Of a DNA stretch of 64,000 nucleotides, positions 22,178-55,643 are shown one piece after another. Source of the DNA: an uncultured bacterium (GTDB taxonomy: Bacteria; Verrucomicrobiota; Lentisphaeria; Victivallales; UBA1829). The stretch lies in assembly GCA_900548385.1 (NCBI GenBank), contig URKJ01000002.1, positions 36,212 through 100,211 on the forward strand, in the 5' to 3' direction. Under the pieces are notes generated by a model, which searched no databases, was not told the DNA's origin, and saw nothing but the letters and a program-made list of their open reading frames with translations. How positions within the stretch are numbered: position 1 is the stretch's first letter; each line of letters opens with the position of its first letter. The translations under genes and the position numbers were made by a program.

Positions 22178-22201
22178 AACATCAACATCGGGAGTTTCAC
22201 A

Positions 22202-24052
22202 ATGACAGACATGAACAAATTGATGGCAGCGGCGGCACTCGGAATCTTTTCCTTTGCCGGAGCCCACGCACAGTACGCACCGTATCCGGAGAGGGGACAG
22301 CAGCCGGAAAGCCAGGCCGCAACCGGACCGTATGACAAGACCGCTGTTCACGCACAACTCAGGCTGAACATCGACAAGGATGTGGGAAAGGTCCATTTCA
22401 TCCGCAACAACAACGATCCGAACGTGGTGACGAAAGCCTATGTGCTCAAACACGCAGATCCGTATGAGATCCGCCCGTTTATCAGAAACGCGGTCTCCTC
22501 GCGCCGGGTCAAAACTTCTCCGACCACGGTGGAGTGCATCAAATACTCCGACGGCACGGGCGTTCTGCTGGTTTCCGCGGAAGATTACCGGTTTACGGAT
22601 GAATCCAAACCCGGAATGAGCATCGACGCCATCGTCGCAATGCTGGACAAGCCGCGCCTGACTTCCTCCTCCGGCTCGCTCACCTATCTGTATTTCCCGA
22701 AATACTTTTCCGCGGAGGCTCTCTGTTCCCTGCTGGCACAGGTCGGCGCGAACGTGGAGGGCGACAATGTCGAACTCCAGTACGGACGTGACAGTCTCGG
22801 CTTTGACGAGGGGCTCAACGCCATGCTGATGTACGTTCCCCGTTACAGCGCAAAACATCTGGAACGCCTGATCAAAATCTACGACATTCCACCCTACGAT
22901 GTCGATGTCAAGTACAAACTGTATGAGATCGACGCGGAGAACGACACGAAAATCGGACTCGATTTTCAGGCATGGAAAAACAACGGCGGAGCGGATATTT
23001 TCAGCGTCGGCGCACGTTTCCGCGACGGCTGGAGCGCCAACTGGGCGGACGGTCCGAACCGGACCGGAACCAGCAACACCCGTTTCCTGAACTTCAACCC
23101 GAAATGGAACACCCGCTATCTGGATTTTCTCGTTTCAAAGGGAAAGGCGAAAGTCGCGACAAAGGGAGTCATCCGGATCGACACGACCGCAACCGCGACC
23201 GTGACCGCCACGACGCAGCTGTTCAACATTGAAAACGGCGAACAGCTCGAAGCAGGTTCCGGCGTGGAAGGATACATCTTCGTCCCGGATGCCGGTTATG
23301 CCGTAACCGCCGTCAATTCCAAAGGCGTGACGGTCATCGACACGGCAAACGGAGTAGTCCCCTCCGGCGCCTCGTATCCGTGGATGATTACAAAGCTGAA
23401 AAACGGCAATTCCGAATTCTACACGATCAAATCCAAAGGCGGCACGTTCGACAACGGAAGAAGCGCCATCAAAATCGCCTACGTCTCCGTGACCGCGACG
23501 GAAACGGATGCCTCCGGAAACAGTGTAACGGTTGATGTTCCGTGGAACACCGGCGCGCAGTATCTCGCGCAGAAAGGCTTCAAGGTGGAAACGACCGCTT
23601 CCTCCTACGGCTTCACGCTCGCCCTGACGCCGGTCGTCGCGGAAAAAACAACCACGATGGACATCGACATCAGAAATGAAAGCCTGATCGGATGGAATTC
23701 CGACGGAACACCGCGCATCAGCAAGGACACCGGCCTGCGGACCAGAGTCATGATGAACAACGCCGGACAGACCTTCGTGGTCGGCGGGCTTTCCAAACGC
23801 TCTCTCGTCACGAGCGACGGCGGTGTGCCATGGTTGAAAAAACTTCCGCTTCTGGGCTATCTTTTCTCAACGGAATCGCAGGCGACGAAGCGTTCGCAGC
23901 TGGTTCTCGTTCTGGAATGCACCGTTGTCGATACTGTCGGTGCAAAACTGGACGGCAAAGCCGGGGAGGCAATCCGCGAAGCGAACGGCAGACTGACTGA
24001 AGCCGGAGTCAAAATTCCGTATGCAAACACGCAATGGGGATTCCGGAGATAA
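22202..24052 (+). CDS. Secretin-family outer-membrane protein (second, divergent paralogue)
   Basis: 616 aa. Sec signal peptide (FAGAHA/Q). N-domain KAYVLKHADPYEIRPFIRNAV...VLLVSAEDY...IDAIVAMLDKP. Secretin entry DVDVKYKLYEIDAENDTKIGLDF. C-terminal VPWLKKLPLLGYLFS. 24 nt after the first secretin gene. Confidence 0.7.
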   Translation: MTDMNKLMAAAALGIFSFAGAHAQYAPYPERGQQPESQAATGPYDKTAVHAQLRLNIDKDVGKVHFIRNNNDPNVVTKAYVLKHADPYEIRPFIRNAVSSRRVKTSPTTVECIKYSDGTGVLLVSAEDYRFTDESKPGMSIDAIVAMLDKPRLTSSSGSLTYLYFPKYFSAEALCSLLAQVGANVEGDNVELQYGRDSLGFDEGLNAMLMYVPRYSAKHLERLIKIYDIPPYDVDVKYKLYEIDAENDTKIGLDFQAWKNNGGADIFSVGARFRDGWSANWADGPNRTGTSNTRFLNFNPKWNTRYLDFLVSKGKAKVATKGVIRIDTTATATVTATTQLFNIENGEQLEAGSGVEGYIFVPDAGYAVTAVNSKGVTVIDTANGVVPSGASYPWMITKLKNGNSEFYTIKSKGGTFDNGRSAIKIAYVSVTATETDASGNSVTVDVPWNTGAQYLAQKGFKVETTASSYGFTLALTPVVAEKTTTMDIDIRNESLIGWNSDGTPRISKDTGLRTRVMMNNAGQTFVVGGLSKRSLVTSDGGVPWLKKLPLLGYLFSTESQATKRSQLVLVLECTVVDTVGAKLDGKAGEAIREANGRLTEAGVKIPYANTQWGFRR

Positions 24053-30341: not shown

Positions 30342-31295
30342 TCAGCAGTACCGCACAAACTCCGCCGGCGGCAGATAAATGACTTCCTCCCGCGGCAGGG
30401 TGGGCTGCTCCAGCCGGTCGACCAGCAGACGCACCCCGCGGCGCGCCTTCTCCGCGGTGCAGGTTCTGATCGCACCGATGATCTGCGGACTTTCCCGCAG
30501 AATGCGGAATTCATCCACGCCGATGATCAGTTCCGGAAAATATCCGGGGATCGTTTCCAGACGGTTCAGCACATCATACAGAGTCATACCGTTCAGCAGA
30601 ATCGCGCTTGGCCGTTCCTCTTCAATATACCGGAGGATCTCCCCGCGTTCCTCCGCGGAATAATAAGTTTTATGAACGAGTTCGATTCCCGCCTGTTCCG
30701 CCGCAATGTCCAGTAAACGGTTCCACGGAAGCATGCGGTCAAAATAACCGAACATGCTCGTATGCCCGCGTTCCTTGAAACAGCGGCAGGCTTCCAGCAG
30801 AGCGGCGGAGATATCGCAGAGCAGGCTGACGGCATCCGGTTCCGGATAAGTGAAGCGGAGAACGGGAATCCCGTTTGCCCGCAAAAGCTCCCGTTGCGGC
30901 ACATCGGCAATCGAAACGGCGGTCAACAGACCGTCGATCCGGTTCCGCATCAGGAAATCCAGCGCCTCCCCCTTCTCTTTGGACGAGTGTCTGGTAACGG
31001 CGATGATCGGAGAATAATCAAGCTGACGGGCGGCGTTCAGCACCTCCTCGGTCAGATGTCCGAAATAGCAGTCGGAAATGTTGCCGACCAGAAAACCGAT
31101 GTTCCGACTCTTTCCGGTCCGCAGGGAACGCGCGAAACGGTTCGGGCGGTAATTCAACTTTTTGACCGCATCGCCGATCCGCTCCGCAGTCTCTCTGCTC
31201 ATGCGTCCGGCTTTGCTTCCGCTCAGATAATAGGAAACCAGCGCTTTCGACACACCGGCTTCCCGTGCAATATCTTTCAAAGTTACCATTTTCAC
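30342..31295 (-). CDS. LacI-family transcriptional regulator
   Basis: MKMVTLKDIAREAGVSKALVSYYLSG...YRPNRFARSLRTGKSRNIG HTH plus a sugar-binding domain. Lies 49 nt upstream of pseudopilin B. Confidence 0.9.
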   Translation of the reverse strand: MKMVTLKDIAREAGVSKALVSYYLSGSKAGRMSRETAERIGDAVKKLNYRPNRFARSLRTGKSRNIGFLVGNISDCYFGHLTEEVLNAARQLDYSPIIAVTRHSSKEKGEALDFLMRNRIDGLLTAVSIADVPQRELLRANGIPVLRFTYPEPDAVSLLCDISAALLEACRCFKERGHTSMFGYFDRMLPWNRLLDIAAEQAGIELVHKTYYSAEERGEILRYIEEERPSAILLNGMTLYDVLNRLETIPGYFPELIIGVDEFRILRESPQIIGAIRTCTAEKARRGVRLLVDRLEQPTLPREEVIYLPPAEFVRYC

Positions 31296-31302
31296 CCTTT
31301 GC

Positions 31303-31347
31303 TTAACCGTTTAACTAAATTATACTATATATTCGCAGAAAAGTCAA
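31303..31347 (-). promoter_or_regulatory. Candidate promoter plus overlapping LacI-type operator for the 30342..31295 regulator operon
   Basis: Reverse strand reads TTGACT (31347-31342), 17 nt, TATAAT (31324-31319), then the palindrome TTAAACGGTTAA (31314-31303; 10 of 12 positions symmetric, central CG) a few nt downstream of the -10. Confidence 0.45.
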
Positions 31348-31390: not shown

Positions 31391-31546
31391 ATTTTTTTGA
31401 ACTTTTTATCATTTTTCAAGAAAACAGGGATTGACATTTCCACAGGATTGTACTATAATTAAAATGATGTGGAAAAATGTTTGGCAGAAAGTATCGCCTT
31501 GACAGGAAAAATTCCGGACGGATTCCACACCTTTCCGGAAGTAAAG
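31391..31546 (+). promoter_or_regulatory. Conserved promoter + 5' leader block, copy C
   Basis: TTGACA (31431-31436), 17 nt, TATAAT (31454-31459), preceded by a T/A-rich UP-like tract. Followed by a leader (AATGATGTGGAAAAATGTTTGGCAGAAAG...TTCCGGACGGATTCCACACCTTTCCGGAAGTAAAG) that matches copies D and E nearly base for base. Confidence 0.6.
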
Positions 31547-31617
31547 TCCCGTTGAGCCGATTTCAAAAGTATTGGCTCTACAAATAAAAAAACAGACTGT
31601 TAAAAGGATTTGAAACG

Positions 31618-32415
31618 ATGAAAATGAAGGCTGAGAACGCAATATCCCATACACATTTTACCCTTGTAGAACTCCTGGTCGTAATTGCGGTGATTGCAAT
31701 CCTTGCAAGCCTTCTTCTGCCGGCACTGAACTCGGCGAGAGAAAAAGCCCACTCCGTCTCCTGTACCAACAACCTGAAATCCCTGGGACTGGCTTCCATA
31801 CAATATTCCGGCGATTCCGAAGACTGGCTGGTCCCGAACTGGAACGGCGACGGAACGGAATACTCTGTCCAAAACGGCAAGGAACGAACATGGATCGGTC
31901 TGTTGTGCGGATTCGATAAAGAGGCCGGCACCAACTGGAAACTCTGGAGCAGACCGGGGCCTTACGGCATCGCATGGAGCTGCAACCCAAGTCCCTCCGG
32001 CAACGGTTCACCGCCTCCGCGAAGAGCCGGACAGTTTTCCTGTCCGGCAGATCCGACACTGCTGACGTGGGGAAGTTATCTGACGAATTATCATATCAAT
32101 CCTTACCTGCATGGAGGTGCCGTGAACAGCAATGACGACCGGCCCGGCAATACCAGAAAGATCACGCAGATTACCAGTCCGGCACAGGCGGTCAGCATGG
32201 CGGAGGGGCTGAGACCGTCGGCAATCTTCGTGTATGGCATGGACTACAACGGCAGCGGCTCCGGAAAGACGGTCAACTACACCCGTCACACCGGAACCGC
32301 CGGATATCTGCTCACAGACGGACACGTCGCCAGAATGAGCGAAGCCCGTGCTTTGAGTACGCACGGATACGATGGCACCGCCAACCGCATTTTGAGAGCC
32401 GGTTTCCGTCCGTAA
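31618..32415 (+). CDS. Pseudopilin-like protein C (prepilin-type N-terminus + H-X9-DG)
   Basis: [44 protein letters not shown]... C-terminal [13 protein letters not shown]. Lies 42 nt upstream of the next hydrolase. Confidence 0.85.
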
Positions 32416-32457
32416 CACGGAAAAGAAAATTTTTCACCCCCCTTACAGGAGAAACAG

Positions 32458-35400
32458 ATGAAAGAAACAGCAACATTCCTGCTGTGCTGCGGAGCCGCTC
32501 TGCTGGCGACGGGCGGAACGATCAACAACAATTCCACCGCAGAGCTCGGAACCCTGAACGGTCCGGTTCCCGGTGTAAAATTCGAACATATACAGATCGC
32601 AAGAGATGTCACAAGGGCAAATCCGGAGCGAATCTATTATCCGGTCACGGTCAATGGTGGCAATCCCGGAAAATGCATGATGCTCCCCGGTTACAGGGGA
32701 CTCCGCTCCTACCGTTTCTCCCTGGAAGATTTTTACATCCGCGAAGCCTGCGAAGTGGAAATCTCTTTCGACGCCAAAGCCGGAGCGAACGAAGACGGCA
32801 AATACACGCCGAATCAGCTGTTCCGTGTGGATTTCCGCGCGAATACCGACGGAGACCGCGACAAATACTATCCGATGCTCAAGGGATTTACGTTCCGTCC
32901 CTCGGACAAATGGCAGAGATTTTCCAAACGCTTCAAAATCAAGGGATATACGAATTTTTACAGCATCTGGGTCATGCCGGGCGCCGGGAAAAACGTCAAC
33001 ACGCTTTATCTGGACAACTTCCGCTTTGCCCGCGTCGGAGCTCCGACAAAACCGCAGGAGGAGTACTCCGTGACATTCGATAAAATCGAATCGCTCTACC
33101 GCTCCGGAGAGCCGGTGAAAATGACTTTCCGCGCGCTTCTCGATACACAGGAGAAAGAGCTTCGGGGAACCATCGGCATCCGGTTCTTCCACGATGGAAA
33201 GCAAGTCGCCGAGCTCCCCGTTGCATTGACCCGTCAGACGGACGGCGTTTACGAGGGGACCGCTCTCTGGAAGCCGGATCTCCACGGAGCATTCGCCGTT
33301 TATTTGAATCTGAAAGGAAGAACGCCGGAACGGATCGGCGGAGATTTTGCGATCATTCATGATCCCGTCCAGCATCCGCGCTTCTCTCCCGGCTGGGCTT
33401 TGGGATCGAACACGGAGAACGGCATCCGGTTCTATGCCGTGGATGTTCTCGACACCACGTTCATCTGCCTCGCGGGAGGCGTTGAAAAGACGTTCCGCGA
33501 CATGCGGCTCAGCGGGCAGTCGATCGGCAGGGTCTGGGGACACTGGCGCGCGACCGAACCGGAACCGGGAAAATTCAGCAAAAATCCTCTCGACGACACA
33601 ATCCGGATGATGAAGAAACACCGCATCGAACCGGTCTTCTGCCTGGTCGGCAGCTTCAATACCAGGCCGGACATACAACAGGTGCTCAAAAAAGGACAAC
33701 ACGGATTCCCCGCGCATCTGGCAAAGTGGCACACGGTCACAAAGGACAACCGGGACGCGGTGCTCATGATCCCCGTCAAAGGCGTCTATGACCGCTATCT
33801 GGATTTTGTCCTGAACACCTGGAAAGACGATGTCAGAATATGGGAAATGAGCAACGAGCCGGGGCTCCTCATCCGTCCGCCGGACGGACATGCGAAATGG
33901 TTCATTGATCTCTGCAAATACACCTATGAGACGATCAAAAAGACACAGCCGGACTCCATCGTGCTCGGCAACGGCGTAACCGGAGACTTCGGCATGAACA
34001 TCGTCGGCTGGTGCAATCAGCTGAACCGGGAAAATCCGGATTATGTGAACTGGCTCGACGGAGTTGCATTTCATCCCTATAACTGCGGGCTCGACTACAT
34101 GAACGGCATGTACTTCCGCTACCGCGACGTCGTCCGTGACATTTCCAAAACACTGAAAGTCAAAAAGCCGCTCTGGAACACGGAAAACTATTATCTTGCA
34201 ACCGCTTACGGCAAACAGATCAATTATTACCTGAACAAGGAACGTTTCGGAGCAAATGAGGTCGCGCGTCAGTTCCTCGACGGATTCCTGAACGGAGTCA
34301 AGGCGACGATGGCAAATACGACGACCGCTTTCTACCGCCAGGTGAACGTGAACGGACTTGCGGCGCCGAACGACGTATTCGCCGCAACGAACGCGCTCTC
34401 CGTTCTGTTGAAAGAGATGGATAACGTCCGGGAGCTGCCGCTTTCCCAATGGGTCCGCGCCGGAATGTTCCTGAGCCGGGACGGAAAGAAGGCGCTCGGA
34501 TTCCTTTACGATATGCGTCCGTCGGGCAGCACATGGATTCCCGGAAAGGCGGCGGCACAGGTGTTGGACATCTACGGCAATCCGGTCAACCAAAAGGAAT
34601 ACACGCTCAAATTCGAACCGTATTACGTCACCGGAACTCCCGCCGGAGTCCGGGAACTGTTGGAAAAATCGCAATTCCGTCTGCAAAACCCGGTGGAGGT
34701 CCGCGCACGCCGGTTCGGGGAGACAGTCTTTTTCGAAGGGAAAAATCTGACCGGACTCCCGATTGAAATCGAAGCGGAAACCGGTTCACTGCCGGTAAGC
34801 TTCTCTTTCCGTCAGGATCCCCGGCTGAGCACGGTCGCGGTCGACGGCTTCAACGGTTCCCTGAAAAACATCCCCCTGATTCCGGATACGCCGCAGTATC
34901 GTCTTCCCGCGAAACTCAAACTGGAAAACGGAAGCGCGATGAACGTCTCGTTCGACGGAAAGATGCTGATCGTCGAAGCGGAGGTTAAAGACCCGCAGGT
35001 CCGTCCGGGAAAAGTCTTTCACGAAGGCAGTTGTGTTGAACTGTTCATCGACGACCAACCGTTCCGCAATCTTGCACGGAATGCGGTACACCCGCTTCAG
35101 TTTTATGGAACGCCCGACGGCGGAAGAGGCGTTTTGAAAGGAGGGAAACGCCGGGATGTTCCCTTTGAATTCAAACAGGAAAAAACGCAGTCCGGCTGGC
35201 GCGCGGAATTCCGCATTCCGGTTCAAAAAGAGTATATCGGAATGGACCTGATCGTCACCCGCGGCGACGGCGAAAAAGAACGGATCAGCGGAATTCAGAG
35301 GGGTACTTCATACAAAGACCGCTTCCATTATCCGCTGTTCAAGCTCGGCTGGAGGGAGTTTCTGAAAAACGGATCCTTTGAACAGAGCCGTTTTGGAGCA

Positions 35401-35841
35401 CCCGACCACTGGTTTTACAGCGTCCGGAACGGAAGCTCTTTCCTGTGTGCGGAGAACTGCGGGCGCTCCGGAAAAGGGATGATGGTGGAAGTGGTCGGAG
35501 AACAGTCCGCACCGTCGGTGATCCATCAGCGTGCGGAATTCCCCGCAGGCAAATACCGGAAAGGGACTCTGAGCTTCACCGCAAAGCTGGAAAACGTAAA
35601 AACGAGTGCGGAAGGCAAAGGAAAACACGGGCTCTCCATCCGCTTCGTCATGAACCGTCACGGAGAAAATTACGCGGAAAAATATCTGAAAAAGGATATC
35701 ACCGGAACCAGCGGCTGGAAGCTGTATCAGATCCCGGTCGAACTGAAAAACAACACGGATTTTCTGGATGTCGAGCTCGGACTGGAGGCAGCTTCGACCG
35801 GAAAAGTATTTTTTGACGACATCAAACTGGAACTGGAATAA
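32458..35841 (+). CDS. Secreted multidomain glycoside hydrolase (clan GH-A-like core, CBM-like modules)
   Basis: 1127 aa. Signal peptide MKETATFLLCCGAALLATG. VRIWEMSNEPG acid/base-type motif and a later KKPLWNTENYY. CBM9-like segment (VEAEVKDPQVRPGKVFHEGSCVELFIDDQP). C-terminal NGSFEQ-type CBM4/9-like jelly roll. Confidence 0.6.
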   Translation: MKETATFLLCCGAALLATGGTINNNSTAELGTLNGPVPGVKFEHIQIARDVTRANPERIYYPVTVNGGNPGKCMMLPGYRGLRSYRFSLEDFYIREACEVEISFDAKAGANEDGKYTPNQLFRVDFRANTDGDRDKYYPMLKGFTFRPSDKWQRFSKRFKIKGYTNFYSIWVMPGAGKNVNTLYLDNFRFARVGAPTKPQEEYSVTFDKIESLYRSGEPVKMTFRALLDTQEKELRGTIGIRFFHDGKQVAELPVALTRQTDGVYEGTALWKPDLHGAFAVYLNLKGRTPERIGGDFAIIHDPVQHPRFSPGWALGSNTENGIRFYAVDVLDTTFICLAGGVEKTFRDMRLSGQSIGRVWGHWRATEPEPGKFSKNPLDDTIRMMKKHRIEPVFCLVGSFNTRPDIQQVLKKGQHGFPAHLAKWHTVTKDNRDAVLMIPVKGVYDRYLDFVLNTWKDDVRIWEMSNEPGLLIRPPDGHAKWFIDLCKYTYETIKKTQPDSIVLGNGVTGDFGMNIVGWCNQLNRENPDYVNWLDGVAFHPYNCGLDYMNGMYFRYRDVVRDISKTLKVKKPLWNTENYYLATAYGKQINYYLNKERFGANEVARQFLDGFLNGVKATMANTTTAFYRQVNVNGLAAPNDVFAATNALSVLLKEMDNVRELPLSQWVRAGMFLSRDGKKALGFLYDMRPSGSTWIPGKAAAQVLDIYGNPVNQKEYTLKFEPYYVTGTPAGVRELLEKSQFRLQNPVEVRARRFGETVFFEGKNLTGLPIEIEAETGSLPVSFSFRQDPRLSTVAVDGFNGSLKNIPLIPDTPQYRLPAKLKLENGSAMNVSFDGKMLIVEAEVKDPQVRPGKVFHEGSCVELFIDDQPFRNLARNAVHPLQFYGTPDGGRGVLKGGKRRDVPFEFKQEKTQSGWRAEFRIPVQKEYIGMDLIVTRGDGEKERISGIQRGTSYKDRFHYPLFKLGWREFLKNGSFEQSRFGAPDHWFYSVRNGSSFLCAENCGRSGKGMMVEVVGEQSAPSVIHQRAEFPAGKYRKGTLSFTAKLENVKTSAEGKGKHGLSIRFVMNRHGENYAEKYLKKDITGTSGWKLYQIPVELKNNTDFLDVELGLEAASTGKVFFDDIKLELE

Positions 35842-35869
35842 CAATCCGAACCCAAAAGGAGATGGTATC

Positions 35870-36391
35870 ATGAAAAGACTGTTTTTCGCTCTCACACTGA
35901 CCGCATCAACTCTTGCATTCGCCGCGGAGGACATCAGAATCGACCTCGCGGCAAAAACCGGACTCATCTGCAACTCCGTTTCCAAAGGAGTAACCGGTTC
36001 TCCCGCCCGCTGGATGAAAGAGCGGCAGGATCAGCGTCTCCTGATCACCGCAAAGTCCGGTCCCGAATGGAAAAAGCACACGTTCACTTTCACACCGAAA
36101 GCCGATGGTCAGGTCGAATTCATCATTATGGGCAATCAAAGAAACCGGGATGTCTGCTACGACAACGTGACAATCAAAGGCGCTGAACTGAAAAACGGCG
36201 ATTTCGAAGAGATGAACTCAAAATCGCTCCCGCAGAACTGGCGCCTCCGGCAGGAAGAGCTCCGCTCCGGCGATGCGGCGTCCGGAAAATACTATGTACA
36301 GACCAATCACGACAAACGGGCAACACAGATCATTACAGTCAAAGGCGGACAGCCTGTCGAAATCAGTTTCATGGCAAAAGCCGCCCGATAA
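35870..36391 (+). CDS. Small secreted CBM-like (jelly-roll) protein
   Basis: Start at the internal ATG after AAAAGGAG. Signal peptide MKRLFFALTLTASTLAFA. ...YDNVTIKGAELKNGDFEE...YYVQTNHDKRATQIITVKGGQPVEISFMAK resembles a single CBM4/9-type module. 173 aa. Confidence 0.5.
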   Translation: MKRLFFALTLTASTLAFAAEDIRIDLAAKTGLICNSVSKGVTGSPARWMKERQDQRLLITAKSGPEWKKHTFTFTPKADGQVEFIIMGNQRNRDVCYDNVTIKGAELKNGDFEEMNSKSLPQNWRLRQEELRSGDAASGKYYVQTNHDKRATQIITVKGGQPVEISFMAKAAR

Positions 36392-36446
36392 GAAATCGGC
36401 TTCCTGAGAGTGCGGAAATTTTCCGCACTCGCCTCCATGTACATGT

Positions 36447-36479
36447 CCGGCGGGAGAGTCGCCGGACGGTTGTTTTTTA
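36447..36479 (+). terminator. Intrinsic terminator ending cassette C
   Basis: TCCGGCG-ggagagt-CGCCGGA followed by cggTTGTTTTTTAT. A second hairpin, GAGTGCGGA...TCCGCACTC, lies at 36408-36430. Confidence 0.65.
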
Positions 36480-36855
36480 TTATACAGCAGAAAAATTCCA
36501 AAAGTATTTTATTCCGAAAGACGAAAATCGGCAGAAAGTTCACAAAAAACGGGAAAAAGTAAACAATCAGCCGAAACGATACGTTATATTGTAAAAAGAA
36601 TTGGCTCGGCAAATTATTTTGAACTTTTTATTGTTTTTTCAGGAAAACGGGTATTGACATTTCTACAGGATTGTACTATAATTAAAATGACGTGGAAAAT
36701 GTTTGGCAAAAAGAATCATCCTGGCAAGAAAAATCCGGCGGATTCCACTCCTTTCCGGAAATAAAGATTCTTTCTCAAAGCATATCTGCGACGAAGAGTT
36801 TAAGAACGATACAAATACAACCAAAGGAGCTGTAAAAATGCAATGCTATAAATGT
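36479..36855. repeat. Direct repeat, copy 1 (promoter + leader + first codons of a pseudopilin gene)
   Basis: Aligns with 39823..40202. Near-identical from gacgaaaatcgg onward; I found only two mismatches by eye (cacaaaa/cataaaa and gaagag/gaacag). Looser at the 5' ~50 bp, and identity decays after ATGCAA. Confidence 0.9.
36613..36766 (+). promoter_or_regulatory. Conserved promoter + 5' leader block, copy D
   Basis: TTGACA (36654-36659), 17 nt, TATAAT (36677-36682). Leader AATGACGTGGAAAATGTTTGGCAAAAAG...TCCGGCGGATTCCACTCCTTTCCGGAAATAAAG. About 150 nt from the -10 to the ATG at 36838. Confidence 0.6.
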
Positions 36856-37560
36856 AAAAAATGTCATCAATTCACTTTGATAGAACTTCTTATTATTATA
36901 TCAATTATTGCTATTCTTGCATCTATTCTTCTACCTGCACTGAGCAAAGCTCTGGGAAAGGCTCAAGCAGTAAAATGCCTGTCCAATCAGAAACAGCTCG
37001 GCACCATCAATCAGATGTACGCCGATTCATTCAACGGCTATACGGTTCCGGTAGGGGGAATTTATGGAGAACCGTCACCGGACAATTGGTCCACAATTCT
37101 GTATCAACTGGGTTTTCTCACAGAAAAAAACAAGATCGTCGCCTGTCCCGCCCTTCCCTCGGTGAATGCAGCCCAAACATACGGCATCAACAATTATATC
37201 AAGGAAGATCCGAGAGGATGGGGGTGGAAACCATTTCTTAACTTGAAAAAACCGGGAAGCTACTTCAAATGGAAAGATTCCGAATTTCAGAATTTCTTTA
37301 AACCGTCTAATTTTCCCTTTCTGGCAGACTCTGTCAGATTTTATCCGGGAATGCTGCAGGTGAAAGAACAGCGTTGGTTTTTCTTCTATCCGTATCCGGC
37401 AACCGACACAGATGACGGCAAAGTTCACATGCGTCATCTGTGTCGCGCCAATATGCTCTTTCTGGATGGACATGCAGACTCACAGACATACAGCATGTTG
37501 AGAAGCAAGTGTAAATTCGAACGGGGGCCAAATTCTACAAACTCAAGCCTTGCCTATTGA
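36838..37560 (+). CDS. Pseudopilin-like protein D (prepilin-type N-terminus + H-X9-DG)
   Basis: Start at the ATG after [57 protein letters not shown]... C-terminal [13 protein letters not shown]. Noticeably A/T-rich codon choice. Lies 33 nt upstream of the next hydrolase. Confidence 0.85.
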
Positions 37561-37593
37561 AACAAGATCCCCATCAAAACCGGAGAATAAAAC

Positions 37594-39513
37594 ATGTTCC
37601 TCTACAGAAAAATCATTGCTCTGACTCTTTTGACAGCTCTTTGCAATGGATATGCCCATACCGTACTGAAAACAGGAAAGGATGCAGGCACGGTACGAAC
37701 AGAAATCTTTGGCAACAACCAGCTCCATTACGGCGACGGATACGGAGTCGTAGATCGTCAGGGAGTACTCAACCCGGAAATGATCGCATTGCTGCAGGAA
37801 GCGGGAATGACGATCCAACGGTATCCGGGCGGATGTTCTACACATTTCTTTAACTGGAAACAGGCGGTCGGACCGAACCGCCGGAAATATACAGCATTTG
37901 CCCTTCCGGAATTCCTCGCCTTTTGTGAGCGAAGCGCAGTCAATGCAGTTATTACGGTATCAGCATTCACCGGGAAGGCAGAGGACGGAGCGGACCTTGT
38001 TGCATATCTGAATCTCCCCGCAAACGGCGGAAACTCCATGGCAGCTCTCCGCGCAGACGATGGACACCCCGCGCCTTATGGAATAAAATATTTTGAATAC
38101 GGCAATGAGGTTTATCACGGCACGACCTGCCGCCGCAGCCTGAAACATCATCGTTTCATTACTCCGGAACAATATGCGGAAAATTATCTTGCATACCGTA
38201 CAGCAATGAAGCATGTGGATCCGGAAATAAAACTTGGAGTCGTCATGTACAGCCCCCTCTCCAAATATAAGGATTCCGCTGACTGGAATAACCGTGTGCT
38301 CGCGAAACTGAAAGGCAACTATGATTTTCTAATCATTCATCTTTACTGTCACGATCCGTTAACGTCGGGAAAAACAATTGCGGCATGGGATTTCTTTCTG
38401 TCCGCCCGCTATATAACCTCCTCCGCGCTGAAAAACATTCTAAAACAGGCGGAACAGCATGGAAAAAAGAATCCGCCGCTCGCCGTAACAGAATTCAACA
38501 GCAATATTGCCATCCACTCCACGCTGCTGAGTGCGTTGGTCTGCGCACAAACGTATCATGCCATGCTGTATACACCGGAAGTATTCATGGCGAATTTCTG
38601 GCAATTTGCCAATGAAGGATGGGGAATGATCAGGAATTACAAAAAACCGTATCTCCGCCGTCCGTCATTTCTAATGCTGAAACTCTTCCGGAAATATCTT
38701 TACACCAGGTTGCTCGAACCGGAAATTACCACATCCTCTGTTACGATTCCTGCCTGCCCGGAGCATCCCGTTCCCGACAAGCAGGAACTGGAACGCGATC
38801 TGATTTCCGGCAGAGAACTGAAAATTGAACAGAACGGAGAATTCGCGGTCCTCAAACATCCCGGCGATGTGGTCGAAATCAAATTTCTGAATGATCGGGC
38901 ATGGAATTTTTTCCATGTCAGCTACCGGCAGCCTATCGCAGCGGATCCTTTTTACGGCTATCGGCTTACAGCGGAAGTACGTTCTGAAGGGATGGAGGAA
39001 AGCTCCGGTCCACAGATTCAGCTTGGCGATACCAGGGGATGGACACAGACCAGATCGGCCGCCTCTACTCCTCCAGTCCGCCCGGCAGAATGGACGAAAG
39101 TGGAAGCGGAATATATTCCCCGTGCAGATACCGATTCTTTAACCATCACATTCCGACGAATCTCCGGCGGAGGCAAAGGTCGAATGTTTTTCCGTAATCT
39201 CCGTCTCAGTCGCTTCCTGCGCCAGAGAGAACAGCTTCCTCTGATCGAAGCGACCGTATCCCAGACAAATGACGGCAAAAAACACGCGTTTCTCCTGTTG
39301 AACCGTTCCAATCGACCGGAAAAAACCGTTATTGAATATACAGCTGCGCGGCGCGTCATTGCAGAAACCCTAACCGGTCCCTCCCCTCTGGCGGACAATG
39401 AATCCAATCCCGGAAATATCCGGATCATACAGCTTCCGGTAAGAAATGATGGCCGGAGCCTGACCATCGTTCTGCCGCCCTGGTCCCTGACCGGCATCCG
39501 CGCCGAACAATAG
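37594..39513 (+). CDS. Secreted GH51-like (alpha-L-arabinofuranosidase-type) glycoside hydrolase
   Basis: 639 aa. Signal peptide MFLYRKIIALTLLTALCNGYA. IQRYPGGCSTHFFNWKQAVGP and IKYFEYGNEVY resemble the GH51 RYPGG...W..GVGP and GNE blocks. Beta-sandwich-like C-terminus. Confidence 0.5.
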   Translation: MFLYRKIIALTLLTALCNGYAHTVLKTGKDAGTVRTEIFGNNQLHYGDGYGVVDRQGVLNPEMIALLQEAGMTIQRYPGGCSTHFFNWKQAVGPNRRKYTAFALPEFLAFCERSAVNAVITVSAFTGKAEDGADLVAYLNLPANGGNSMAALRADDGHPAPYGIKYFEYGNEVYHGTTCRRSLKHHRFITPEQYAENYLAYRTAMKHVDPEIKLGVVMYSPLSKYKDSADWNNRVLAKLKGNYDFLIIHLYCHDPLTSGKTIAAWDFFLSARYITSSALKNILKQAEQHGKKNPPLAVTEFNSNIAIHSTLLSALVCAQTYHAMLYTPEVFMANFWQFANEGWGMIRNYKKPYLRRPSFLMLKLFRKYLYTRLLEPEITTSSVTIPACPEHPVPDKQELERDLISGRELKIEQNGEFAVLKHPGDVVEIKFLNDRAWNFFHVSYRQPIAADPFYGYRLTAEVRSEGMEESSGPQIQLGDTRGWTQTRSAASTPPVRPAEWTKVEAEYIPRADTDSLTITFRRISGGGKGRMFFRNLRLSRFLRQREQLPLIEATVSQTNDGKKHAFLLLNRSNRPEKTVIEYTAARRVIAETLTGPSPLADNESNPGNIRIIQLPVRNDGRSLTIVLPPWSLTGIRAEQ

Positions 39514-39822
39514 AACACAGTTACACTCCGTTATTGAAAATTTGAGTCGGACAAAACGTTATGAAGTGTGAGACTTCGGCAAGCAATACTCAGGAAACAT
39601 CGAAATACCGACTTTTCTATCAAATAACGAGCTGCCGACTTTTCAACTTAAAGACAAACTTTTCAAATACGGGTGGTGTCCTTTCACAAAATGAGGAAGT
39701 CCTGAACCGGCTACCGGAACCCGATAGTAACCGTGAAGCAGTCCACAGAGAAGCGATGTTTCAATAATTTCTTTATCCAGAGGATGGAATTTGACCATTG
39801 CGTCACCAGTTCTCCACATTCT

Positions 39823-40202
39823 ATTATACAACAGAGATAATTTCAAAAATACTTTTTATTCCGAGAGACGAAAATCGGCAGAAAGTTCATAAAAAACGGG
39901 AAAAAGTAAACAATCAGCCGAAACGATACGTTATATTGTAAAAAGAATTGGCTCGGCAAATTATTTTGAACTTTTTATTGTTTTTTCAGGAAAACGGGTA
40001 TTGACATTTCTACAGGATTGTACTATAATTAAAATGACGTGGAAAATGTTTGGCAAAAAGAATCATCCTGGCAAGAAAAATCCGGCGGATTCCACTCCTT
40101 TCCGGAAATAAAGATTCTTTCTCAAAGCATATCTGCGACGAACAGTTTAAGAACGATACAAATACAACCAAAGGAGCTGTAAAAATGCAACGCTATAAAA
40201 GC
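39823..40202. repeat. Direct repeat, copy 2
   Basis: See copy 1. The two copies are 3344 bp apart. Confidence 0.9.
39960..40113 (+). promoter_or_regulatory. Conserved promoter + 5' leader block, copy E
   Basis: TTGACA (40001-40006), 17 nt, TATAAT (40024-40029). Leader identical to copy D. Confidence 0.6.
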
Positions 40203-40940
40203 CGGAAACGTTATCATTTTACCCTCATAGAACTCCTCATCGTCATATCAATTATAGCAATTCTTGCCGGAATGCTCCTCCCGGCGCTGAACAGCGCGCG
40301 AGCCAAAGCACGCACCATCAGCTGTATGAACACGATGAAAGGGCTCGGCACGGCAGCGGTTCAATACGCTTCCTCGTTTGACGAATTCTGGGTACCATAC
40401 CGGAGCGATGCACCGGGGTCTTCCTCCTCCCGGAAATGGTTCGCTCATAACGAAGCATTCATGGAAATGCACGGATTGTCAAGACATCCCTCTTATCCGG
40501 AATTCGTCCGCAGAAACACGGTCTGCCCGGAACAGCTGAAGCCTTCCCCCGACACCAATTTCAAGCCGGAAATATGGATCCCGATAGGCAATGCCTACGG
40601 ATTGCCGTGGGGCGCAGGCTCGGAATTTCATCCCGGCGGAGAAAGCGGCCCGGCGGAATGGCAGATCTTCCGTCTCAACAAGATCCGCACGCCGTCCGCC
40701 TCGTTCGGCTTTCTGGAATGCAGCACCAGCGGACGTGTCGGATTCTGGAACTGCACATTAACGGCATACGAAACGAATCCGTTTGGAGAGCATATTGCCC
40801 CATTCCGTCATCCGGGTCTGCGGCTCAACGCAGTTTTCTTCGACGGTCATGTGGAAAACCGCGGCTACCGCCAGGTGGAGGGCGGAATTCCGGCTAATAC
40901 GAAAACACATCCGAACTGGCTGCTCTGGCATCCGTACTAA
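40185..40940 (+). CDS. Pseudopilin-like protein E (prepilin-type N-terminus + H-X10-DG variant)
   Basis: [42 protein letters not shown]... C-terminal [14 protein letters not shown]. Close paralogue of F. Confidence 0.85.
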   Translation: MQRYKSRKRYHFTLIELLIVISIIAILAGMLLPALNSARAKARTISCMNTMKGLGTAAVQYASSFDEFWVPYRSDAPGSSSSRKWFAHNEAFMEMHGLSRHPSYPEFVRRNTVCPEQLKPSPDTNFKPEIWIPIGNAYGLPWGAGSEFHPGGESGPAEWQIFRLNKIRTPSASFGFLECSTSGRVGFWNCTLTAYETNPFGEHIAPFRHPGLRLNAVFFDGHVENRGYRQVEGGIPANTKTHPNWLLWHPY

Positions 40941-41072
40941 GAAAGACCATCCCCGGCCATTTTCCATATTTCCCGTCTTTCCGGCAAAATCATTGCAGTG
41001 CATCGAGTGCATGATTTTGCCAATTCCACAAAGAATATCTTTAAATTTTTCTTTTTTTTCAAAAAAAGGGGA

Positions 41073-41101
41073 TTGACATTTTCCATGTTATGATGTATAA
41101 T
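41073..41101 (+). promoter_or_regulatory. Consensus sigma70 promoter upstream of the regulator/pseudopilin F/GH10 operon
   Basis: GGGGATTGACATTTTCC...: TTGACA (41073-41078), 17 nt, TATAAT (41096-41101), followed by TAAAA. Preceded by a T-rich tract. Same design as copies C, D and E. Confidence 0.55.
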
Positions 41102-41120
41102 TAAAAACAGATGCTAAATA

Positions 41121-42203
41121 ATGCTAACAAAAAGAGTGTTTCCGAATATGAAAAAGAAAAAACCTCCGGTTGCGGAATATATGAAGATCCGGCGTTATAT
41201 GCTCCATTTTGTCGAGCAGGCGGGGGAACAGTCTGTGCTGGCGCCATCTATTCTGGAACTCTCACGGAAATTCGGAGTCAGCAGACCGACCGTCAGCAAA
41301 GCAATGAAAATGCTGACCGATGACGGTTATATCATCGGCCGTCCCGGCGTCGGGGCATTCACCAATCCTGCCAAGATTCACCGTTATCAGTTACGGAGCT
41401 ACCGGAACATCAGTATCATTGTCGGCGACGGAATGCTGGTGCATCAGGCCCCCTACCAGACCGAGATGATGGCGCGTATTCTGCTGAATCTTGCCCGGCA
41501 AGGTTTTGAAACCAGTTTTCTCCAGCTGACCTCACATCAGGATGAACAGATTCTTGAAGAACTTTCCATGAACCAGTTCTCCGTTCTGTTGTGGATCCTG
41601 CCGCCCAGGGAAATGTACCCCGTCATCCGTGAACTGAGAAAAATGGGACGCAGTGTCATATCCAACGGGAAAAGCGATGACGACCACTGCGGAAACGTGT
41701 TCCTTGATTACGAAGGACTCGGCTATGAGGTCGGACGGAGACTTATTGCGGAGGGCCGGAGCAAAGTCGTCTATCTCCTCGACAATCCAGCCTGGGGGCG
41801 TCCGCTCGCCGGCATGAAACAGGCGTACCGGGAAGCCGGAATCGAACCGGATCCGGATCTCACATTCACTACCGCCGTGGACCTGTGGGACCGGCTGGCA
41901 GAACTCCTGAACACACCGGGAAAAGTCGATTCTGTCTTCAGCGCAGTCTGCTCCACCAGTTTGTTTCTGCCGTTCTACCGGCAGCTTTCGCCGGAGGTCC
42001 GGAAGCGGAACCGGTTTATTCTGGAAGAGGATTATTGCCCGCCGGACGAATTTTCCGGCTGGCTGTTCCAAACCCCGTTTCAGGAACTGGCAGACGAAAC
42101 CATCCGTCTGATTTCGTTGGAAACAGAAGGAATTTCACAGGAAGAAGCCCATATAAAAATCAATCTCCCGCTGACGGAGACAAAAGGAGGAAAAACAGCA
42201 TGA
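41121..42203 (+). CDS. Hybrid transcriptional regulator: GntR-type winged-HTH + LacI/PBP1-type sugar-binding domain
   Basis: [42 protein letters not shown] is GntR-like. The remainder resembles a periplasmic-binding-protein fold. The start is uncertain (ATG at 41121 or 41148). The stop overlaps the pseudopilin F start (ATGA at 42200-42203). Confidence 0.7.
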
Positions 42204-42970
42204 GAACCACCCGAAACACACATCAAATTCGCAGAAGGAAAAGCTATCATTTCACCCTCATAGAACTCCTGGTGGTCATATCAATTATAGCCATATTGGC
42301 AGCTCTTCTTTTGCCCGCGCTGAACAGTGCGCGTGCCAAGGCGCGAACCATCAGCTGTATAAACACGATGAAAGGACTCGGCACGGCGGCAGTTCAATAC
42401 GCTTCCTCGTTTGATGAATTCTGGGTTCCCTACCGGTGCGATGCGCCGGGGTCTGCCTCCGCACGGAAATGGTACTCACATAATGAGGCATTTATGGAAA
42501 TGCACGGATTGTCAAGGCATCCTACTAACCCGGAATACGTCCGCAGAAACACGGTCTGCCCGGAACAGCTGGCTCCTTCCACCGATACCAATTTCAAGCC
42601 GGAAGTATGGATTCAGATACAAAATGCCTACGGACTGCCATGGGGCGCAGGCTCGGAGGTTCAGCCCGGCGGAGAAGGTGGAGCGGAATGGCAGATCTTC
42701 CGTCTTAATAAGATCCGCACGCCGTCCGCCTCGTTCGGCTTTCTGGAATGCGGCGCTGGCGGACGAGTCGGATTCTGGGACAGTCTGCTTACGACTTATC
42801 AAAACAAACCATTCGCTGACAACACGCCCGCATTCCGTCATCCGGGCCTGCGGCTCAACGCCATTTTCTTTGACGGTCATGTGGAAAACCGCGGCTACCG
42901 TCAGGTGGAAGGCGGAACGCCTGCCCATTCAAAGACGCACCCGAACTGGCTGTCCTGGCATCCATACTGA
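42200..42970 (+). CDS. Pseudopilin-like protein F (prepilin-type N-terminus + H-X10-DG variant)
   Basis: Start at the ATG after [57 protein letters not shown]... C-terminal [14 protein letters not shown]. Lies 14 nt upstream of the GH10-like gene. Confidence 0.85.
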
Positions 42971-42984
42971 TTAAGGAAAAACCG

Positions 42985-44316
42985 ATGAACCGAAATCGAA
43001 AAGCCGTTCTCCAGCCTTTTCTGGATAAACAGGACTACATGGAAAACCGGATCCGTCAGGGAATTGACTCCAGCCGGAAAGCGTGGTGCCGGATCCGGCT
43101 GGAAGACGCCGCGCACAATGCGATTCCGGGTGCGACGGTAAGAATTGCACAGAAAAGCAGTGATTTCAAATTCGGCGCCAATCTTTTCATGCTGGGCGAA
43201 TTTCCCCGTGAAGAATTGAATGCCAAATACGAACGCCGCTTCTCCGGGCTGCTCAATATGGCGACTCTGCCGTTTTACTGGCGGGACACGGAACCGGAAC
43301 AAGGGAAGCTCCGCTGCCGGAAAGGGGATGCGCACATTTACCGTCGTCCCCCGGTGGAACTGTGTCTGGAATTCTGCGAAACGCATGGGATCGAACCTAA
43401 AGCGCATTGTCTGAATTATGCCTGCCACGCACCGGACTGGCTCCCGGCGGATACGGCGACGGAAAAGCGGCTTCTGGAAAAACGTTTCCGGGAACTTTCG
43501 GAACGCTTCGCATGTCGGATTCCGGAGTGGGAAGTCACCAACGAAACATTTTACGAGTGGAACCGGTTCCGCGGCCGCTCCGAGTTTTTCCAGGACCCGG
43601 ACTATGTGGAATGGAGTTTCAAAACGGCGGAGCGGTTCTTTCCGGCAAACAGGCTGTTCATCAACGAAATGCAGGAACGGATCTGGGACAATCGCAGTTT
43701 CTACGGCAACCGCAGCAGCTATTACATGCAGATCGAACGGGCATTGCGCAACGGCGCCCGGATCGACGGAATCGGGATGCAGTTCCACATGTTCCACCGG
43801 CGGGAACAGGAGGCGGAAAAAACTGCGGAATATTACGATCCGGAGCGTATCTACAACGTGCTCGACTGTTACGCCGGATTCGGAAAACCGCTTCAGATCA
43901 CGGAATCAACCATTCCCGCATACAGCGAAAATGCGGAAGACGAAGAGATTCAGGCGGAAATCCTCCGTAATCTGTTCCGTATCTGGTTCAGTCATCCCGC
44001 CGTGGAGGGAGCGGTCTACTGGAATCTGGCGGATGGAACGGCTGCCGGTGCGGCAGGCGACATGACAAGCGGGGAAAATTATTATTACGGCGGACTCCTC
44101 CGGCGCGATCTCTCCCCGAAACCCGCTTACGATATGCTCCGGGAACTCATCACCGGAGAATGGCGGACCTCGCTGGAAGCGGAAACGGATGGAAACGGCG
44201 AACTCCGGTTCCACGGTTTTTCCGGCGGTTACGAACTGACGGTCAACGGCTGCCGCCGCGAATTCCGCGTGGAACGGATGCAAAGCAGTGCCGTTATACT
44301 CGTCATTGACAAATAA
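42985..44316 (+). CDS. GH10-like glycoside hydrolase (endo-beta-1,4-xylanase family), no signal peptide
   Basis: EWEVTNET (acid/base block, cf. WDVVNE), IDGIGMQFHM, and LQITESTIP (nucleophile block, cf. ITELDI). The N-terminus MNRNRKAVLQPFLDKQDYMENR is not signal-like. Confidence 0.6.
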   Translation: MNRNRKAVLQPFLDKQDYMENRIRQGIDSSRKAWCRIRLEDAAHNAIPGATVRIAQKSSDFKFGANLFMLGEFPREELNAKYERRFSGLLNMATLPFYWRDTEPEQGKLRCRKGDAHIYRRPPVELCLEFCETHGIEPKAHCLNYACHAPDWLPADTATEKRLLEKRFRELSERFACRIPEWEVTNETFYEWNRFRGRSEFFQDPDYVEWSFKTAERFFPANRLFINEMQERIWDNRSFYGNRSSYYMQIERALRNGARIDGIGMQFHMFHRREQEAEKTAEYYDPERIYNVLDCYAGFGKPLQITESTIPAYSENAEDEEIQAEILRNLFRIWFSHPAVEGAVYWNLADGTAAGAAGDMTSGENYYYGGLLRRDLSPKPAYDMLRELITGEWRTSLEAETDGNGELRFHGFSGGYELTVNGCRREFRVERMQSSAVILVIDK

Positions 44317-49845: not shown

Positions 49846-50085
49846 AAACCGATGGAAATTGAAAATTGCCCCCTGCCTGACCTCGCGCCTTCGAGGCGAT
49901 TGCACCGGCAGCCCGACACGGACTCCGAACGATTCGCCTATTGCAGCAATTCTACAGGCAGTCGCTAAAGCGGCTTCCTTTCTATGAAAAAACGGTTGAC
50001 AAACCTCTATTACGATAGCATGGAGTTTCTTTTTTATTTCAGATTGAAAAAAATCTTGCCTAGTGTATATTAAAGCAATATGGTT

Positions 50086-50220
50086 TTTCCATGAAACGGA
50101 AGTCCGGTGAAAATCCGGCGCAGACGCGCTACTGTAACCGATAAATACCGGTCTGAACCACTGTAAAAACGGGAAGATTCAGACATAAAACGGGTCGGAA
50201 GCCAGGAGACGCCATGGAAA
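50086..50220 (+). promoter_or_regulatory. Cobalamin (B12) riboswitch aptamer; expression platform extends to the SD at ~50355
   Basis: P1 TTTCCATG/CATGGAAA encloses GGTGAAAATCCGGCGCAGACGCGCTACTGTAAC, CCACTG...CGGGAAG and the B12-box-like GAAGCCAGGAGACGCC. Downstream, TGCTCC (50324-50329) can pair with the SD GGAGCA (50350-50355). Confidence 0.8.
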
Positions 50221-50360
50221 GACCGAGCATAGCTGTCTCGCGATTAGACGGGTAATGCGGAGGATTCAGGCACTGCGTCTTTACGTGGGGCCGTCTTTTC
50301 GTGTGCTCAATTCCGGGCTGTTGTGCTCCATTTCATTCTTAACTTGAAAGGAGCAGCAGA

Positions 50361-52857: not shown

Positions 52858-52934
52858 TGGTCGGAGCAGTGGGATTCGAACCCACGACTTTCTGGTCCCA
52901 AACCAGACGCGCTACCGGGCTGCGCTATGCTCCG
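52858..52934 (-). tRNA. tRNA-Pro (anticodon UGG)
   Basis: Reverse strand reads CGGAGCATAGCGCAGCCCGGTAGCGCGTCTGGTTTGGGACCAGAAAGTCGTGGGTTCGAATCCCACTGCTCCGACCA. Cloverleaf with 7-bp acceptor stem, anticodon stem TCTGG/CCAGA, loop TTTGGGA, GGTTCGAATCC T-arm, and encoded CCA. Confidence 0.9.
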
Positions 52935-55481: not shown

Positions 55482-55643
55482 GAACCTTGCAAATCCCTTT
55501 TCTTAAAATATACCGCAGTATTTTACTATGAAAACGGTGGTTTAACAAGTCAAAAGATAAAATTATTTTCAAAAATCTCTTGATATTCCGGAAAAACATA
55601 CTATTTTTCCCGGAAACCACAACAAAACCTCCGGGAGAACATT

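Follow-up and report, generated by a model that had tools for sequence, protein, structure and literature searches.

The DNA analyzed here is a 64-kb stretch of the genome of a bacterium of the order Victivallales (the whole of this stretch is referred to as the window), and the element under study is a block of promoter and leader sequence that is repeated in front of genes for pseudopilins. Genes on the minus strand encode a LacI-type regulator, a pseudopilin and a giant GH2-like protein, and the cassettes of interest, designated C, D, E and F, lie on the plus strand. The C operon encodes a pseudopilin followed by proteins of 1127 and 173 amino acids (aa), the D cassette a pseudopilin and a GH51-like arabinofuranosidase, the E cassette a single pseudopilin, and the F operon a GntR-type regulator, a pseudopilin, a GH10 protein and a 1774-aa GH2-like protein. 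One of the protein clusters carries the name 'DUF1559 domain-containing protein [Victivallales bacterium]'; in the literature on DUF1559 pseudopilins and Victivallales, nothing relevant was found. The same locus is present in the NCBI assemblies GCA_037064665.1 (a 4.56-Mb contig) and GCA_965316175.1. The coordinates of all features are collected in Table 1.

Four promoters with the sequence TTGACA-N17-TATAAT, which agree with the sigma-70 consensus at 12 of 12 positions, were found on the plus strand in front of C, D, E and F. When up to one mismatch was allowed, six sites of this pattern were present in the window, compared to the 0.09 sites expected from shuffled sequence. Each of the four sites combines both hexamers and the 17-bp spacer with an A/T-rich tract at approximately -40 to -60, and these tracts can be aligned upstream of the four -35 elements as well as in the regulator promoters of related species. 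The resulting AT-rich dips stand out in a window of approximately 54% GC. Promoters of this kind, in which an upstream (UP) element accompanies consensus sigma-70 hexamers, are represented by rrnB P1 of E. coli, and transcription from such promoters should be very high. The A/T-rich tract, the TTGACA and TATAAT hexamers and the 17-bp spacer are alike in the two systems; unlike rrnB P1, both hexamers are perfect here at four neighboring sites, and the Victivallales promoters, with their sigma factor and start sites, are predicted from sequence.

The similarity of C, D and E extends beyond the promoter. The three sites have in common a block of approximately 155 nucleotides (nt) that spans the A/T tract and the promoter and continues through approximately 87 nt of the leader, with approximately 87% identity between the C copy and the D and E copies over 155–158 nt. 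The limits of the block agreed across multiple alignment, repeat detection and profiling with nhmmer. Its edges are sharp on both sides, with flanks that cannot be aligned, and the similarity ends 71 nt 5' of the C start codon and 72 nt 5' of the D and E start codons. F has in common with the block only the A/T tract, the promoter and approximately 10 nt beyond it (nhmmer E=0.0017 against block positions 8–80). By hand count on the alignments, the promoter spacers of C and D are identical at 16 of 17 positions and those of C and F at 7 of 17; the identity of C and D is thus high also where promoter function does not constrain the sequence. We infer that transcription starts approximately 7 nt past the -10 element in each copy, and cassettes with the common promoter-leader module almost certainly have the same transcription signal.

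An earlier note on this DNA had described much of this arrangement, and its descriptive claims held: the four perfect promoters, their appearance as AT-rich islands, the continuation of the similarity of C, D and E past the -10 element to about 70 nt before the start codon, and the complementarities GTGGAA...TTCCAC and (T)TCCGG...CCGGA(A) within the leader were all found as described. The note had also pointed to a short open reading frame in the D and E leaders that is frame-shifted in C, and indeed an ATG 5 nt past the -10 element opens 25 codons in D and E and a frame-shifted version of 12 codons in C, where the peptide (MMWKNVWQKVSP, then a stop) differs from the 25-residue peptide of D and E.

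Table 1. Features of the locus in window coordinates, with related data.
Feature	Position	Strand	Remarks
LacI-type gene	30342–31289	-	
Divergent LacI-gene promoter	31303–31347	-	TTGACT-N17-TATAAT (31347–31319), then imperfect palindrome TTAAACGGTTAA (31314–31303)
C block copy	31392–31546	+	A/T (UP-like) tract 31392–31430; -35 31431–31436; -10 31454–31459; putative start ~31466; shared leader 31460–31546
Complementary words, C leader	31469–31540	+	GTGGAA 31469–31474; TTCCGGA 31512–31518; TTCCAC 31523–31528; TCCGGAA 31534–31540
Variable middle of leader	31484–31506	+	5 of 7 within-species polymorphic sites; 5 of 21 fixed C-type versus D/E-type differences
Unshared part of C 5' untranslated region	31547–31617	+	Includes ribosome-binding site AAAAGGA; whole untranslated region ~152 nt
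C operon	31618–36391	+	Pseudopilin 31618–32415; 1127-aa protein of no recognised family 32458–35841; 173-aa protein 35870–36391
Terminator-like hairpin 3' of C operon	36444–36478		
Left repeat arm	36475–36920	+	From just past the C-operon terminator through the block and the private leader of D into conserved pseudopilin N-terminal codons
D block copy	36614–36766	+	-35 36654–36659; -10 36677–36682; putative start ~36689; missing in four strains
Complementary words, D leader		+	36692–36697; 36734–36738; 36743–36748; 36755–36759
D cassette	36838–39513	+	Pseudopilin 36838–37560; GH51-like arabinofuranosidase 37594–39513
Right repeat arm	39819–40267	+	Strain loci L048–L051 hold one fused copy of both arms
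E block copy	39961–40113	+	-35 40001–40006; -10 40024–40029; putative start ~40036
E pseudopilin	40185–40940	+	Sole gene of E cassette; chimera
F promoter	41036–41112	+	A/T tract; GGGGA-TTGACA-N17-TATAAT-TAAAA design; -35 at 41073, -10 at 41096; no shared leader; heads GntR-type regulator, pseudopilin, GH10 and GH2-like genes
GntR-type gene	41121–42203		

D and E lie in the two arms of a direct repeat of approximately 445 nt, and their upstream regions are 99–100% identical over approximately 320 nt, which bears out the earlier description of the two as recent duplicates. E itself is a chimera. Its upstream region and first codons are D-like (100% identity over 39899–40138, and 95–97% in the adjoining windows), and from approximately 40219 on its pseudopilin is approximately 85% identical to that of the F operon. 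In four strains (loci L048–L051), including the complete genome GCA_037064665.1, the D cassette is missing, and the C operon is followed by one repeat copy and then by E (7623–8067 of these loci, against window 36475–40267). D is present at the same place in at least 10 other assemblies, and in all D-carrying strain loci that span the two copies, the block of E is identical to that of D. The strain-variable unit, which comprises the D cassette genes and one repeat arm, is 3.3 kb in size. In a further strain (L053, 8592–10693, against window 40185–44316), the E and F pseudopilin genes, which are 84% identical, have recombined, with the loss of approximately 2 kb that held the F promoter, one pseudopilin gene and the gene for the GntR-type regulator; the GH10 operon of this strain is now headed by the E module, and the GH10 gene directly follows E. 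Sharp boundaries, near-uniform identity, presence or absence with a single repeat left where the cassette is missing, and chimeric junctions, all of them marks of duplication and recombination tracts, were thus observed together. Because D is, by these alleles, a strain-variable duplicate of the region upstream of E, only two old copies of the block can be counted, a C-type and a D/E-type.

The pseudopilin genes of the locus also vary in how they are called and preserved. The database entries P0073 and P0054 (285 aa and 296 aa) represent D and E genes that were extended by 45 codons, from an in-frame TTG, into the leader (window 36703–37560 and 40050–40940), and these N-terminal extensions are probably annotation artefacts. 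In one strain (L052, 25–822, corresponding to window 31618–32415), the C pseudopilin carries the premature stop W107*, as checked by translation, and the same split gene calls, seen as gene calls only, are present in four further assemblies (L054, L058–L060). The C pseudopilin may not be essential.

The origin of the C copy was examined in related species. Three of them have orthologous C cassettes with 58–67% aa identity and the same trio of a pseudopilin, a 1126/1127-aa protein and a 173/174-aa protein. In these relatives the cassette is found with a divergent AraC gene, a TTTACA-N17-TATAAT promoter and leaders that are unrelated to the block. The block was not found by BLAST or profile in the three orthologous C loci, and it was also not found in further Victivallales loci of other species. 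With a different promoter in front of the relatives' C cassettes, the block would therefore have reached C after the split of this species. The approximately 87% identity of the C-type and D/E-type copies thus points to recent copying and not to long-term conservation, because the orthologous C cassettes of the nearest relatives are without the block. The coding sequences of C and D are unrelated at the DNA level, and, leaving aside the N-terminal helix, their pseudopilins are approximately 22% identical; the genes therefore duplicated long ago, in contrast to the young block. The view that C is a locus independent of D and E, as previously put forward, is upheld for the coding sequences, but as an argument for conservation of the leader it is weakened by the presence of only two old copies and by an identity that reflects recent copying.

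A different leader, GC-rich and approximately 140 nt in length, precedes the orthologous C-type cassette in two of the relatives (L013, 9836–9975, and L015, 9014–9150). It is conserved between both species, folds better than shuffled sequence (z=-2.4), has no Rfam match, and ends in the hairpin CGGAAAAATG...CATTTTTCCG, which has a U-run only in L013. This is possibly an undescribed attenuator-like leader.

Searches for further copies of the block were performed at several scales. The genome collection that was scanned holds one genome for each of 185,579 species; this species is evidently not among them, as its own copies went unmatched, and the negative results cover other species only. An exact-word scan of this collection with a two-box pattern gave no match, and the 18-mer of the 3' box gave 23 single matches of 19–26 nt each in unrelated phyla, which is approximately the number expected by chance. 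The JGI metagenomes gave one chance match within coding sequence, IMG/VR gave no match for the block, and the plasmid and phage collections contained no copy of it. The nhmmer profile, run over the window, the 10 kb beyond its start and approximately 200 kb of related Victivallales loci, recovered only C, D, E and the F promoter. A protein search with the block translated in six frames, designed to pick up gene models reaching into further copies, recovered only the over-extended genes of D and E. A scan of related genomes had been suggested earlier, and no copy of the block was found in the scanned genomes of other species or in the loci of the relatives.

Taken together, these observations make it probable, in our judgment, that the block is a lineage-specific promoter and 5' untranslated region (UTR) module that was recently copied by recombination in front of pseudopilin-glycosidase cassettes. 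The module would begin with the UP-like A/T tract, continue with the perfect sigma-70 promoter and end ~85 nt into a 5' UTR of ~150 nt. Recombination would place it ahead of otherwise unrelated cassettes in one gut Victivallales species and thereby give these cassettes the same, probably very strong, transcription signal, and the repeats would in turn serve as homology for the gain and loss of cassettes. The likeness of the C-type and D/E-type leaders would then be the result of shared descent and ordinary promoter constraint, and not of an RNA sensor. A known parallel is found in the seven rrn operons of E. coli, in which duplication or gene conversion maintains the similarity of the P1-P2-leader regions. 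As in the rrn operons, promoter and transcribed leader are repeated in front of separate operons, and the repeats are substrates for recombination. In contrast to the rrn operons, the downstream cassettes are unrelated, there are two to three copies, and the leader has no known antitermination box or defined function.

Variation among strains was used to weigh the proposed recently copied module. The variability of the block (1.8–3.4%) is not lower than that of its surroundings, for which the locus average is approximately 0.5–1.5%. Of the seven polymorphic sites in the block, two are in the A/T tract and five in the 23-nt middle of the leader. Several observations nevertheless count against this interpretation. 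The promoter, the 24 bases at the 5' end of the leader and its 39-nt 3' box, which add up to 92 nt, are free of polymorphisms, and the clustering of five of the seven sites within 23 nt has P~0.001 under a uniform expectation, although the sites are few and the segments were delimited post hoc. This is the only hint of constraint beyond the promoter; it concerns the 3' box, where a leader that simply hitch-hikes would need none. The stretch that varies also corresponds to the long loop connecting the helices of a possible pseudoknot formed by GTGGAA/TTCCAC and TCCGG/CCGGA. In addition, no flanking homology, terminal repeats or target duplication that would indicate how it was copied was seen at the C copy. 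Finally, approximately 74 kb of the genome of this species was inspected, and further copies are possible.

The foremost alternative, which we regard as possible but doubtful, is that the leader and/or the spacer and -10 region contain the operator of a trans-acting repressor that switches C, (D) and E on together. A perfect-consensus promoter needs negative control, the C, D and E cassettes encode no regulator of their own, and LacI-type and GntR-type genes flank the cassettes. Repressor operators located just past a strong promoter are well known from lac O1, gal OI and the CcpA cre roadblocks, which involve the LacI/GalR family. In this order, the promoters of operons that begin with a regulator gene are perfect or nearly so and are closely followed by a palindrome past the -10 element, and because of this pairing, repression of such consensus promoters is the local norm. 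The promoter-then-palindrome arrangement was observed at LacI-family genes in several Victivallales species, with TTAAACGGTTAA in the window, TGGAAATTAGTTTCCA in L011 (98–172, minus strand) and TTAATCGATAA in L065/L066 (7149–7215, plus strand), and it looks, from the sequences, like a conserved layout for autoregulation.

In the block itself, the evidence for such an operator is divided. In C, the arms TTTCCACA...TGTGGAAA flank the -10 element and a third TTCCAC is located at approximately +58, where GTGGAA and TTCCAC resemble LacI/GalR half-sites; the leader also has CCGG-centred sites 20–21 bp apart, and the 5' 24 nt and the 3' box are free of polymorphisms. However, by reading of the sequence, the dyad around the -10 element is degraded in D and E (TTTCTACA and CGTGGAAA). 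No contiguous LacI-type palindrome of 14–20 bp is present in the C/D/E block, which has only the 8–10-bp TT(T)CCGGAA(A), and compared to lac O1, gal OI and cre the half-sites are 23–48 nt apart. The candidate operator of the LacI gene, TTAAACGGTTAA, was considered as an operator common to the C, D and E leaders and was rejected, as it is absent there and matches with two mismatches occur at chance level. The F promoter, which is the promoter of the GntR-type gene itself, shares none of the leader, and strain L053, which is without the GntR-type gene, still keeps the module. A derivation of the leader from the 5' end of the F regulator gene was also considered; a similarity was hinted at by MAFFT, but the local alignment scores were within the shuffle null, and the idea was rejected; the block leader is not significantly similar to either the leader of F or the beginning of the F regulator gene.

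The CCGG-centred words deserve separate mention, since the earlier note had emphasized two spaced copies of the palindrome TCCGGA in the leader. Both copies are present, but they are not a special signal. In the window, no octamer is as frequent as TTCCGGAA, which has 28 sites compared to approximately three expected from dinucleotide shuffles (for example at 31533–31540, 36753–36760 and 55586–55614), and TTCCGG/CCGGAA and TCCGGA are the top three hexamers, at 7–8 times the zero-order expectation; a maximal-order Markov model accounts for the frequency of TTCCGGAA from its sub-words. Because these are the commonest words of the window, the TCCGGA and TTCCGGAA palindromes in the leader carry no special signal, and this also counts against the CCGG-centred sites as parts of an operator.

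That the leader acts as an RNA element is unlikely. In this model a UCCGG/CCGGA hairpin, whose loop UUCCAC pairs with the 5' GUGGAA, would form an H-type pseudoknot that has a long variable loop and a role in mRNA stability, translation or ligand sensing. The complementary words are indeed interleaved in pseudoknot order, both helices are intact in the C-type, the D/E-type and all strain variants, the inter-stem linker lengths (4 and 5 nt) are kept, and all leader polymorphisms fall within the connecting loop. Perfect hairpins like the one noted earlier, with 5 bp or more, are found in approximately 60% of shuffles or random genome pieces, and the hairpin together with a 6-bp helix from the loop to the upstream strand (the interleaved GTGGAA/TTCCAC) in approximately 4–5%, which at P~0.04 is weak for a pattern recognized post hoc. 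In terms of folding, the leaders do not differ from shuffles (z = -0.20, +0.01, -0.85 and +0.06), compared to the z=-2.4 of the relatives' unrelated leader. No Rfam 15 match to the leaders was obtained at the gathering threshold or at E<=10. No intrinsic terminator was found in the leaders and no helix sequestering the ribosome-binding site (RBS) was predicted, which leaves no expression platform; the Shine-Dalgarno bases are predicted to be mostly unpaired (pairing p~0.03–0.3), with partners outside the conserved box. The CCUUUCC box, which resembles the anti-Shine-Dalgarno tail of 16S rRNA and is a 7-nt complement of the D RBS, was considered as a sequestering element and rejected, as the RBS is predicted to be unpaired in both leaders.

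RNAalifold, applied to five variants from only two lineages, gave a weak consensus of -10.7 kcal/mol (covariation term, -0.46), whose sole 'compensatory' pairs are located at an indel. Two lineages allow no covariation to be assessed, and the sole C/D difference within the hairpin merely shortens the helix from 7 to 5 bp. The element is also not conserved in any relative examined. The preQ1-II and SAM-II riboswitches, which are H-type pseudoknots, likewise have two short interleaved helices in a 5' UTR, but unlike these the leader has no family match, thermodynamic signal, expression platform or conservation beyond one species. The earlier suggestion of an RNA switch or attenuator was thus not supported, and on present evidence the block adds no new riboswitch class.

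It is very unlikely that the block is a non-autonomous mobile element with an outward-facing promoter, such as a miniature inverted-repeat transposable element or a Correia-like element. Its sharp edges, its length of approximately 155 nt and its promoter at the head of unrelated genes agree with such an element, and the Correia elements of Neisseria, which are promoter-carrying miniature repeats, would similarly bring a promoter to the head of different genes. In contrast to these, no high copy number was seen, and no terminal inverted repeats or target-site duplication were seen when the four block ends were read, although no dedicated test was run. The two to three copies in approximately 74 kb are confined to 9 kb and share one orientation, the 445-nt repeat, which reaches well past the block, accounts for the D/E pair, and none was found in other genomes, plasmids or phages. 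Attenuation of the operon by translation of a leader peptide can be given almost no credence, as the reading frame of 25 codons opened in D and E by the ATG 5 nt after the -10 element is unconserved and frame-shifted in C, the ATG lies at or before the likely start of transcription, and no terminator follows.

There is also a slim chance that the conserved 5' 24 nt and 39-nt 3' box, connected by a linker that is free to vary, constitute either a pseudoknotted RNA specific to this lineage or a bipartite operator, in which case the block would be a portable regulated promoter for glycan-utilisation cassettes that spreads by recombination. If this were true, independently acquired pseudopilin-glycosidase cassettes would have come under one new post-transcriptional or repressor signal in Victivallales.

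Other features were recorded in the vicinity. Two tandem genes with secretin domains (511 and 616 aa; 20642–24052, plus strand) adjoin the cassettes, and the same gene pair is found beside the orthologous cassette in the relatives L013 and L014. A perfect 11-nt inverted repeat, GGCAAAATCAT-N17-ATGATTTTGCC, is located at 40983–41021, past the stop codon of E and ahead of the F promoter; it is not followed by a U-run, and its sequence could be that of a terminator-like hairpin or a protein site. A cobalamin riboswitch (50064–50230, plus strand; Rfam RF00174, 64.5 bits) and a tRNA gene (52861–52934, minus strand) are also present in the window.

The interpretation of the block as a recently copied promoter and 5'-UTR module bears on how glycan-utilisation cassettes are rewired in the order Victivallales, part of the poorly studied gut phylum Lentisphaerota. 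A ready-made strong promoter and leader would have replaced the ancestral AraC-linked promoter at C, and the same repeat would mediate the gain or loss of a whole arabinofuranosidase cassette, with a regulator gene lost in one strain. In practical terms, such repeats break short-read assemblies and cause pseudopilin gene calls to be over-extended at the N-terminus, and the block itself is a candidate strong promoter part for Victivallales genetics.

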